In this document: piece after piece, positions 5,774 through 7,168 of the stretch
Layout: every line of letters starts with the position of its first letter
Numbering within the stretch: the stretch's first letter is position 1
Origin: a virus
UHGV virus genome: UHGV-0175408
Direction: 5' to 3' (one strand)
Length of the DNA stretch: 21,394 nucleotides
Position numbers and translations under genes: made by a program
The notes under the pieces: generated by a model
Told to the model about the DNA's origin: nothing
What the model saw: only the letters and a program-made list of their open reading frames with translations
Database searches by the model: none

Positions 5774-6820
5774 TTAACTATTTTCTTTTATTTCGCTTAC
5801 AGTCTGGTTAAATCTCTCTTCTTCCAGCTCCACACCTATTGCATGCCGTCCCAGCGATAATGCTGCTTTTATTGTTGATCCCGACCCCATAAAAAAATCA
5901 GCAACCAAATCTCCCGGATGGCTGCTGGCAGTAATTATCTGACGCAACATATCCGCCGGTTTTTCACAGGGATGTTTGCCCGGATAATACTGCACGGGCT
6001 TGTGCGTCCAGACATCCGTATAAGGAACGACAGCCGATACGGAAAAATAACGCCGCAGTGATTTGTATTCCTCCAGCAGGCTGGCATATTGCCGGTTCAG
6101 TTCGCTGTATGTGCTGACCAGCTGGTGGTGTGGCTGCTCCAGTTCACCACGCTGGTGTTTTTCTGCCGCCACACGTACAAACAGCGCCTGCAGTTTACTG
6201 TAATCGGCCTCATTCGGTAACTGCCACTGACTGGTACCAAACCAGTGCGAAGCCATGTTTTTCTTTCCGGTGGCTTCAGCTATCTGTTTTGCCGTTATCC
6301 CCAGTGATTCACGCGCATCACGAAAGTAAGAAATCAGCGGGGCCATGACGTGCTGTTTTAGTTCACGCCCCTTTGCCGCATAGCCGTCATTTTTGGGCAG
6401 GTATGGCCCCTGATAATGTTCTGCAAACAGAATGCGTTCTGTTGCCGGGAAATACGCCCGCAGGCTTTCCTTGTTGCATCCGTTCCAGCGCCCGGACGGC
6501 TTCGCCCAGATAATGTGGTTCAGCACATTAAAGCGTTCACGCATCATGATTTCGATATCAGATGCCAGGCGATGACCACAGAACAGGTAGAGACTTCCGG
6601 CAGGCTTCAGTACCCGCCAGAACTGCGCCAGACATCGGTCCAGCCATTTCAGGTAATCATCGTCGCCCTTCCACTGGTTATCCCAGCCCTCGGGCTTCAC
6701 TTTAAAGTATGGCGGGTCTGTGACTATCAGATCGACAGAATTTTCCGGTAAGGTCTGGATAAATTCCAGGCAATCAGCGTTGATTAACTCACAACTGGAT
6801 ATTTTTACAGTATTAGTCAT
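5774..6820 (-). CDS. Orphan DNA N6-adenine methyltransferase (beta-class, motif IV DPPY before motif I FxGxG)
   Basis: 348-aa ORF with DPPY near the N-terminus and FMGSGST near the C-terminus; no adjacent restriction endonuclease ORF. Confidence 0.8.
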   Translation of the reverse strand: MTNTVKISSCELINADCLEFIQTLPENSVDLIVTDPPYFKVKPEGWDNQWKGDDDYLKWLDRCLAQFWRVLKPAGSLYLFCGHRLASDIEIMMRERFNVLNHIIWAKPSGRWNGCNKESLRAYFPATERILFAEHYQGPYLPKNDGYAAKGRELKQHVMAPLISYFRDARESLGITAKQIAEATGKKNMASHWFGTSQWQLPNEADYSKLQALFVRVAAEKHQRGELEQPHHQLVSTYSELNRQYASLLEEYKSLRRYFSVSAVVPYTDVWTHKPVQYYPGKHPCEKPADMLRQIITASSHPGDLVADFFMGSGSTIKAALSLGRHAIGVELEEERFNQTVSEIKENS

Positions 6821-7029
6821 AGATCAATAAGCACTTCTCTGATAGGCTCATACCGCTTTTGCGCAAAGCAGATGGGCCTGAGGTTTGCTTGTGACCCCAA
6901 CGCATGAGCAGATGGCTGGCAGGTGCCGCTAACACCCACCAGCCGCCCATTACCACAAATTAAAAAGCCTTCACTGCGGAAGGCGTCTGTAACAACCGAA
7001 CTGATAATCAGCCAGACCTGCCATAACAA
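6817..7029 (-). CDS. Hypothetical protein, translationally coupled to the methyltransferase
   Basis: 70-aa ORF whose stop overlaps the methyltransferase start; overlaps the upstream small gene in another frame; sequence not recognisable. Confidence 0.3.
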   Translation of the reverse strand: MLWQVWLIISSVVTDAFRSEGFLICGNGRLVGVSGTCQPSAHALGSQANLRPICFAQKRYEPIREVLIDL

Positions 7030-7168
7030 GCTGGGTCAGTATTAACTGGCAACGTTCGCGTGAAAGGTACGTATTCTGCGCAATTTCCCCGACGGTCGCC
7101 GGCTCGGTGACGCTTAATTCATTAAACACCACTCTGGCGGTTTCGGTCATATCCTGCTGTTTTAGCAT
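6971..7168 (-). CDS. Small HTH-like protein upstream of the methyltransferase (possible controller/regulator)
   Basis: Start taken at the internal ATG (MLKQQDMTETARVV...) preceded by AAGGGA; helix-turn-helix-like segment TVGEIAQNTYLSRERCQLILTQL; the track ORF extends to 7252. Confidence 0.4.
   Translation of the reverse strand: MLKQQDMTETARVVFNELSVTEPATVGEIAQNTYLSRERCQLILTQLVMAGLADYQFGCYRRLPQ

Follow-up and report, generated by a model that had tools for sequence, protein, structure and literature searches.

A 150-nt spacer upstream of a DNA methyltransferase gene in the virus genome UHGV-0175408 contains a strongly conserved structured RNA element, undescribed as far as we have checked, that is linked exclusively to the methyltransferase family that it precedes. 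The stretch of this genome analysed here (the window) is 21,394 nucleotides long, and carries on its minus strand, in order, a Q antiterminator gene, a 65-amino acid (aa) winged-helix open reading frame (ORF), the spacer, a gene for a 348-aa N6-adenine methyltransferase (MTase) of the M.EcoGII family, two tRNA genes, a 132-aa ORF, and holin, endolysin, and terminase genes. The original prediction for this locus – made from the window alone – was concerned with the MTase and the small ORFs preceding it, and overlooked the spacer, which is itself the unusual feature. The asymmetry of its mismatches, together with better consensus folding on the antisense strand and a TG-n-TAnnnT motif conserved on that strand, suggests that the element is transcribed antisense to the MTase leader as a roughly 100-nt RNA composed of a 5′ hairpin and a three-way junction, and that it acts as a lock on a toxic enzyme, a reading in which our confidence is a little above the midpoint. 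How a phage silences and then deploys such a dangerous enzyme has so far been undescribed, and the element offers a testable handle on MTase control whichever strand is functional.

Conservation and covariation of the spacer element

The element is located at 6815-6961 on the minus strand, these being the sense coordinates of a 124-bit match to a covariance model (R1), and its 3′ end coincides with the MTase ATG. A helix designated P0 (UGGGC:GCCCA) closes a three-way junction with helices P1 and P2, and is followed by hairpin P3 and by hairpin P4 just 5′ of the ATG. A further hairpin, P5 (ACUG-N10-CAGU; 6794-6811, minus strand), falls within MTase codons 4-9 and has constrained synonymous sites, with third-position conservation of 0.62-0.97 in codons 2-9 and approximately 0.5 thereafter. 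The spacer has near-invariant blocks (AAUGGGCG, AAGGCCCA, and GAGCCUAYCA), between which change is base-pair-preserving; for example, the counterpart of the E. coli GGCUGGUGGGUG...CACCCGGCCAGCC is GACUGUAAAAGUG...CACCUUUACAGUC in Proteus and GCUACAGCAUG...CAUGCUGUAGC in a Klebsiella phage.

Using the MTase as query we gathered 80 species-level (GTDB) loci, about 50 of which contain the element, as do contigs in IMG/VR. Across 723 kb, model R1 matches each locus exactly once, always on the same strand as the MTase and finishing at the start codon, and also picks up a Gilliamella locus outside its training set. A pattern scan of IMG/VR combined with R1 yielded 22 more distinct copies; the MTase comes next in all of these but three, the exceptions being a deletion derivative, a scaffold break, and a copy in which a small ORF is inserted. 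The element is confined to positions directly 5′ of an M.EcoGII-family MTase, or of a Com-like zinc-ribbon gene that is itself followed by such an MTase. IMG/VR locus L117 (9733-9860) is a natural deletion derivative, with an intact winged-helix gene and an element that is intact as far as GGGGAGCC, but with no MTase beyond that point. In the Xenorhabdus/Photorhabdus loci L048-L074 the winged-helix gene is retained, but of the element just the initial segment is present (GUGAAAUGGRCGGCUGG and a hairpin), with P2, the 3′ strand of P0, and P3 missing; in the Xenorhabdus members of this group the hairpin is followed by a T-run, as in a plain terminator.

Support for the proposed pairing is strong relative to controls in which the pairing partners were slid. 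Across 71 distinct sequences, 86.3% of cells are paired (27-38% in slid controls), 23 pairs are compensatory (7-13 in slid controls), and the observed covariation score was reached by none of 500 shuffles. A diverse set (n=31) gives compensatory change at 30 of the 39 pairs and a covariation of 0.352, against no more than 0.093 in controls. These alignments were fitted to the model and hence favour it; both the slid controls and an unfitted MAFFT alignment agree with the result obtained from them.

A search of Rfam 15 with the region 6700-7500, on both strands and at E≤10, gave no match overlapping the element, and the only matches above gathering threshold in the window as a whole are to two tRNAs, C4, and isrK. 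None of the 57 phage records carrying the element annotates it as an RNA; among the records listed, the region either has no feature or, in a few, is covered by a "hypothetical protein". It is not among the prophage small RNAs (sRNAs) of enterohaemorrhagic and enteropathogenic E. coli (AgvB/AsxR, Pas) in a literature of which our coverage is incomplete, such that an earlier description is possible, and literature on antisense RNA, methyltransferase, prophage, and Q antiterminator yielded nothing on it. The AgvB/AsxR anti-sRNAs, which are 51-60 nt long and lie 3′ of moron coding sequences, do not fit the element, and neither do the Pas sRNAs, which are Escherichia-restricted and occupy other positions. 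It resembles the C4 (P1/P7) and CI (P4) immunity RNAs (Rfam clan CL00128) in being a compact, branched, phage-encoded, and probably regulatory RNA, but these models do not match it on either strand, and the location and the linked gene are different.

Strand of the element and a putative antisense promoter

The candidate antisense RNA maps to 6853-6955 on the plus strand (both ends approximate), on the evidence of its minimum free energy (MFE) fold, an 81.7-bit match to a second covariance model built on the antisense strand (R2), and the distribution of mismatches. Its predicted parts are P3′ (6855-6869), P0′ (6871-6877 with 6945-6951), P2′ (6883-6913), and P1′ (6914-6944). When the diverse set is read on the sense strand, A.C or C.A accounts for 111 mismatched cells and G.U for only 23, the corresponding numbers for individual helices being 29 and 10 in P1, 59 and 6 in P2, 11 and 5 in P3, and 12 and 2 in P4, with none in P0. 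Because A.C and C.A cells on the sense strand are wobble pairs on the antisense strand, they argue against sense-strand folding; moreover, the alignment used for this count was fitted to a sense model that rewards G.U, and is thus biased against an antisense result.

Other comparisons of the two strands point the same way. Pairing in P2 rises from 74% of cells on the sense strand to 91-94% on the antisense, and 69 of 71 sequences form a more stable P2 on the latter, whereas a control, the neighbouring terminator-like hairpin T0, is more stable on the sense strand (43 vs 24 sequences). On the antisense strand RNAalifold recovers the junction, at -30.0 kcal/mol; the sense strand yields -16.1 kcal/mol and lacks the junction. 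The closing helix gains two more pairs, varying as GU/AU/GC, in an unfitted antisense alignment, and R2 has a GC/GU/AU series in P2′; in the R2 alignment 87.8% of cells are paired, with a covariation of 0.449 and at most 0.155 in slid controls. The MFE fold of 6850-6962 (plus strand) is the exact consensus architecture (-41.1 kcal/mol, z score -2.9), whereas the sense MFE fold is not the consensus but contains an alternative helix.

The sense MFE fold, with this alternative helix and a z score of -3.9, is one of several observations consistent with a different explanation, in which the element acts on the sense strand only as a cis-regulatory 5′ leader, with a riboswitch-like or protein-binding junction controlling translation of an MTase gene that has no Shine-Dalgarno (SD) sequence within 15 nt of its ATG. 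A sense riboswitch of this type – with P0 alternating with a GGCCCAC:GUGAGCC helix and P4 bringing a 'split SD' near the AUG – was our initial model, and it was demoted to a rival by the wobble asymmetry. In one version GCCCA would pair alternately with UGGGC (P0) and with GUGAGCC, and in another P4 would bring an invariant GAG near the AUG; the element might bind the winged-helix protein, a Com-like protein, or the MTase. Whichever ORF comes first downstream, the 3′ end of the element always meets its start codon; the AUG is flanked by P4 and P5, which show some covariation and synonymous constraint; P1 and T0 are sense-favoured in the enterobacterial set, and a related clade (see below) inserts a Com-like zinc-ribbon gene, inviting comparison with com-mom translational control in phage Mu. 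However, the poor sense pairing of P2 reflects mismatches that are nearly all A.C or C.A in every clade, the sense strand lacks the junction in RNAalifold, no known riboswitch class matches, and reading the invariant 'GAG...UA.CA' as the complement of a -10 element accounts for it at least as well. We therefore regard a sense-only element as unlikely, although well within the range of explanations to be taken seriously.

The -10 element in question is part of a putative antisense promoter at 6820-6848 (plus strand), with a -35-like TAGATC at 6820-6825, a TG at 6840-6841, and a -10 hexamer TAGGCT at 6843-6848. Of 88 distinct sequences, 85 have the pattern TG(n)TAnnnT at a fixed place on the antisense strand; this pattern is the complement of the invariant sense block A...UA.CA. 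Ten variants of the hexamer, including TAGGCT, TAAGCT, TAGACT, TAACCT, TAAACT, TATGCT, TAGAAT, TAGTAT, and TATTAT, all keep T1, A2, and T6 and vary at positions 3-5; the promoter spacer is constant at 17, although its sequence differs between clades. As a pattern of conservation this is that of an extended -10 promoter, and the predicted start is at the foot of P3′. Candidate sigma-70 consensus promoters within the MTase coding region (TTGATT or TTGACT with TATTTT or TACAGT) have the wrong spacings of 14 or 20 nt, and an antisense promoter within the coding region was discarded in view of synonymous constraint ending at codon 9. The -35 region of the putative promoter includes a Dam site (GATC, 6822-6825) that lies just 5′ of the MTase ATG and is shared by the enterobacterial, Proteus, and Morganella versions.

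Several observations weigh against antisense transcription of the element. The promoter hexamers are weak (3/6 each) and below the threshold of a sigma-70 consensus scan, and the antisense RNA has no canonical intrinsic terminator, only UU(U)YCAC following the closing helix, with T0 being sense-oriented. In the Enterobacteriaceae subset the stability of P1 slightly favours the sense strand (52 vs 19), and when pairing is fitted to each strand, P1 and P3 are paired at 88.2% and 82.9% on the sense strand and at 84.7% and 78.7% on the antisense strand. P4, P5, and the constrained codons 1-9 fall outside the proposed antisense RNA and, together with the SD-less MTase, hint at an additional sense-strand translational role; the antisense RNA would, moreover, miss the MTase start codon. 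Both strands may fold, as in other sense/antisense pairs.

The spacer might instead act as DNA, with P3 – a palindrome that reads GCTTTAGCGCTAAAGC in many relatives – and perhaps other inverted repeats serving as operators through which the winged-helix protein controls the MTase or the antisense promoter, in keeping with the 'controller-like' role suggested for this protein in the original prediction. P3 shows no strand preference, it would occupy +1 to +20 of the putative antisense promoter, and the winged-helix gene is tightly linked upstream in most loci. On the other hand, P1 and P2 are long, fast-covarying hairpins with wobble pairs, typical of RNA rather than of operators; about 15 loci hold the element and MTase without the winged-helix gene; and the protein is not an Xre-type controller (C) protein and has no restriction enzyme beside it. 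An operator function is thus improbable, and we continue to prefer an antisense RNA.

An M.EcoGII-family methyltransferase in a late operon

The MTase (5774-6820, minus strand) matches PF01555 (N6_N4_Mtase; 155 bits) as one domain spanning residues 29-340, with the beta-class motif order of DPPY (residues 35-38) followed by FMGSGST (residues 310-316), and the solved structures closest to it by sequence are the beta-class enzymes RsrI, MboIIA, CcrM, and others. It aligns with M.EcoGII over its full length at 294 of 347 identical positions (85%, with 91% positives), although the M.EcoGII reference was machine-read from the supplement of the SUPREM paper (PMC11551740) and a few residues are possibly misread; the central four-helix recognition domain (residues ~160-237, as described in PMC11551740) aligns without gaps. 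By these criteria the MTase is a member of the M.EcoGII family, with 2941 relatives in the database at E≤1e-20. In common with M.EcoGII and M.EcoGI of E. coli O104:H4 prophages, it has the beta-class motif order, a length of ~348-349 aa, a prophage location, and no nearby restriction enzyme; no restriction-enzyme gene is present among the window ORFs or annotated in the 20-kb neighbourhood of a 98%-identical E. coli prophage. The assignment as an orphan beta-class enzyme made in the original prediction is thus borne out, but the enzyme is not an uncharacterised one awaiting a target motif, as it belongs to a known and characterised family. M.EcoGII is a widely used tool for chromatin and RNA footprinting. 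Approximately 40% of complete E. coli genomes contain homologous DNA, as do many Stx2a and Stx2c phages and the phages phiP27, SfV, and mEp460.

M.EcoGII is a prophage-borne enzyme of 349 aa that methylates adenine in any context in DNA, single-stranded DNA, and RNA; its constitutive expression makes clones sick, and it is silent in the lysogen (Murray et al. 2018; PMC5778455). Ancestors reconstructed across the family are also non-specific (PMC11551740). From this close homology, the MTase in the window probably methylates adenines without sequence specificity, and would be expected to protect progeny phage DNA from many restriction systems and to harm the lysogen if made there. Anti-restriction, one of two roles raised in the original prediction, is the most plausible. 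The other, epigenetic regulation in the lysogen by a site-specific orphan such as Dam or CcrM, has some appeal in that beta-class orphans such as CcrM are regulatory and CcrM is among the structural relatives of the MTase, but the 85% identity to M.EcoGII includes the recognition domain, the family ancestors are non-specific (PMC11551740), homologues at ~93% similarity yield no methylation motif in the methylomes of Shiga toxin-producing E. coli lysogens (PMC6602927), and the gene lies behind two terminators in a Q-dependent operon; such a role is very improbable. The lack of a prophage-dependent motif in a lysogen, offered at the outset as grounds for rejecting the prediction, is what would be expected and refutes nothing, because enzymes of this family are non-specific and lysogen-silent.

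The two terminators form part of what appears to be a late-operon 'any-adenine' methylase module of a lambdoid prophage. A region at 7291-7376 (minus strand), identified by a promoter scan and by alignment of the Q-to-winged-helix intergenic region across six loci (the window and five relatives), contains a pR′-like promoter (TTTACG-16-TATGAT; 7349-7376), a conserved initial transcribed segment (ATGTTAAGAGTGGTCAC; 7334-7350), and a tR′-like hairpin (7291-7318), which we take to be the usual pR′/qut/tR′ features of lambdoid late operons. The terminator is canonical in the five aligned relatives, with a hairpin and T-run (e.g. CCCGCCGCGAGCGGGTTTTTTT). The window version of the hairpin is degenerate (CCAGCCGCCAAACGGGG followed by T6, and CCCGCCGCGAGCGGG followed by T7 in relatives). 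The second terminator-like hairpin, T0, was found by a terminator scan at 6957-6984 (minus strand; hairpin at 6967-6984), and consists of GCCTTCCGCAGTGAAGGC followed by TTTTTAATTT, with the stop codon of the 65-aa gene in the loop of the hairpin and the T-run coming next. An equivalent GC-rich hairpin with a T-rich tail is present 5′ of the element in most loci, including those without the winged-helix gene, and T0 rather than the degenerate tR′ may be the main barrier before the MTase in this prophage. In at least 19 loci, belonging to several genera, a Q homologue is situated 0.2-3 kb upstream of the module, and a 98%-identical prophage in porcine enterotoxigenic E. coli strains has an identical gene order, for which PGAP supplies the labels "DNA-methyltransferase", a 198-nt "hypothetical protein", and tRNA-Gly. 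Because the 65-aa gene is downstream of tR′ it is a Q-dependent late gene rather than a lysogenic one, and because the MTase is behind Q/pR′/tR′ and also T0, its transcription should need Q-modified RNA polymerase. Silence in the lysogen is known for homologues, and the position of the MTase gene here favours it.

We propose that the MTase would be made only once Q-modified polymerase reads through both terminators, and that the extended -10 promoter, within the MTase 5′ leader, would drive the antisense RNA in the direction leading away from the MTase. Made constitutively, this RNA would base-pair with the matching leader of MTase transcripts that arise by read-through, and hold the toxic enzyme in check until Q-driven late transcription out-titrates the RNA; the methylated progeny DNA would then resist restriction in the next host. 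We put forward, as a tentative generalisation held with slightly less than middling confidence, that these elements constitute a new widespread family of phage RNAs, transcribed antisense from a leader promoter and serving as a dedicated lock for non-specific adenine MTases in temperate phages of Enterobacterales and marine gammaproteobacteria, maybe together with the winged-helix or Com-like protein and with sense-leader folding. If so, they would represent a toxin-antitoxin-like safeguard for an epigenetic 'weapon', and would explain the silence of M.EcoGII-type genes in thousands of lysogens. The published work on M.EcoGII (PMC5778455) makes no mention of an upstream winged-helix gene, terminators, or a structured element; two loci (L006 and L086) with MTases ~95% identical to M.EcoGII carry both the winged-helix gene and the RNA element.

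The proposed arrangement has parallels in cis-antisense locks such as hok/sok and other type I toxin-antitoxin systems, RalR/RalA of Rac, P22 sar-ant, and R1 CopA/CopT, in which a structured RNA lies opposite the leader of a harmful gene, with its promoter embedded in that leader; hairpins on both strands could likewise allow loop-loop pairing. It departs from them in that there is no recognisable terminator and the start codon is not overlapped, and a three-way junction is unusual for this class. A second comparison is with com-mom of phage Mu, in which a toxic late DNA-adenine modification gene is translationally controlled by a small zinc-finger protein and an mRNA stem-loop. Both systems have a broad-specificity, host-toxic, adenine-modifying anti-restriction function that is late and lies behind a small regulatory-looking gene and structured RNA, but the window has a winged helix instead of a zinc ribbon, and an S-adenosylmethionine-dependent methyltransferase instead of Mom, and Mu has no counterpart of the RNA element.

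No Com-like ORF is present in the window. However, in a related IMG/VR clade, with MTases 57-62% identical, a Com-like zinc-ribbon ORF of 36-48 aa lies between the element and the MTase, with a Pfam Com match that is sub-threshold (16.6 vs 22.9 bits). This clade shows that control in several layers recurs among MTases of this family. Its members are loci L209-L213, L219, L226, L228, L233, and L122/L214, and the element ends near 1330-1346 in L209-L234; the Com-like ORF (e.g. MTKLIELRCPKCGAKLCEFIGTVSIKCKRCK...) is followed by a hairpin, AGUGCC...GGCACU, that buries a GGAGG SD, and the MTase starts with ATG or TTG.

Small upstream reading frames and neighbouring genes

The 65-aa ORF (6971-7168, minus strand) is a real gene, as the original prediction supposed, previously known just as a member of an uncharacterised phage family. 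It has a strong SD (AAGGGA) 8 nt 5′ of its ATG, it is annotated by PGAP in a relative, and its product matches phrog_331 (function unknown) at 1.4e-37 and, weakly, TrmB; database names for it include "TrmB family regulator" and "DprA-like winged helix". The helix-turn-helix (HTH)-like character noted earlier is seen in an AlphaFold2 model (predicted local distance difference test score 89.8) as a three-helix, two-strand winged helix of order H-H-H-E-E. A homologue is found ~340 nt before the MTase start in most of the 80 loci, in Escherichia, Salmonella, Klebsiella, Buttiauxella, Proteus, Xenorhabdus, and Photorhabdus, and is 75-77 aa long in Klebsiella phages. Foldseek matches to the model are generic winged helices, all with E>1e-3 (IclR/MarR N-terminal, O-methyltransferase dimerisation, SelB WH, and Z-alpha), and specific roles based on the fold – an N6-methyladenine reader like the DpnI winged helix, a Z-alpha domain, or an RNA-binding SelB WH – were set aside on that ground. 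The protein shares with the C proteins of restriction-modification systems a small DNA-binding fold and a gene just upstream of a methylase gene, but there is no restriction enzyme, the winged helix (of TrmB/DprA-WH/IclR-N type) is not an Xre-type HTH, and the gene is behind pR′/tR′, with the pR′-like promoter and tR′ terminator filling the region upstream of it, where no C-box is noted, although no search aimed at one was made; identity as a C-protein controller was accordingly rejected.

A 70-aa frame between the winged-helix gene and the MTase (ORF70; 6817-7029, minus strand) was previously described as a coupled ORF, or as possibly forming one frameshifted gene with the 65-aa ORF. The frame is indeed open for 70 codons in the window, with a TTG start, and its stop codon overlaps the MTase start as ATGA, but this overlap is trivial because the second MTase codon begins with A in 59 of 68 relatives. 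The start is without an SD, there is no Pfam or PHROG match, PGAP makes no call in the 98%-identical prophage, and the frame is a chance, mechanical ORF: just 11 of the 68 distinct relatives keep it open through the spacer (the median across the 68 is 26.5 open codons), and stops are frequent (e.g. TAG in GTGTTGTAGCACC). Residues 25-53 of ORF70 do show tblastn similarity in other loci, as a result of nucleotide conservation of the structured non-coding element, and substitutions in the spacer track base-pairing rather than codon periodicity. Furthermore, the upstream winged-helix ORFs are complete, at 62-67 aa in nearly all loci, and fusion to the downstream frame is never seen. Upstream conservation, proposed earlier as a check, is thus found for the 65-aa gene and not for ORF70, and both the coupled gene and the frameshift, which are barely credible from these comparisons, were rejected. 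The element is a likely annotation trap in this respect, as its conservation lets a spurious small ORF look conserved in translated searches. A candidate leader peptide, AUGGGCGGCUGGUGGGUGUUGUAG (MGGWWVL*), was also rejected, as the hairpin is conserved and the peptide is not.

The Q antiterminator gene is located at 8909-9292 (minus strand; Pfam Phage_antitermQ, 181 bits). Between it and the pR′-like promoter is an OmpC/NmpC/Lc-type porin gene on the opposite strand (7622-8719, plus strand; Porin_1, 516 bits), a moron; in related phages Q is followed directly by pR′/tR′ and the winged-helix gene, and the gap from Q to the 65-aa gene is ~215 bp in the porin-less phage PPyecE_EH1910. Directly downstream of the MTase are two minus-strand tRNA genes, with Rfam tRNA scores of 65.6 and 45.9 bits: a tRNA-Gly(tcc) at 5439-5513, also found by ARAGORN, and a second tRNA gene at 5520-5592 (45.9 bits) that ARAGORN missed. 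A tRNA-Thr and a tRNA-Gly are annotated at the corresponding position in related strains. The 132-aa ORF (4923-5321, minus strand), located after the tRNAs and before the holins, matches nothing in Pfam or PHROG and is a PGAP hypothetical in a related prophage. In the early/immunity region, a C4 antisense RNA (13575-13662, minus strand; 84 bits) and isrK (13687-13763, minus strand; 55 bits) are adjacent to each other and adjoin ash- and Rha-type genes, as annotated in a near-identical prophage, forming a P1/P4-like immunity RNA module in a lambdoid prophage.

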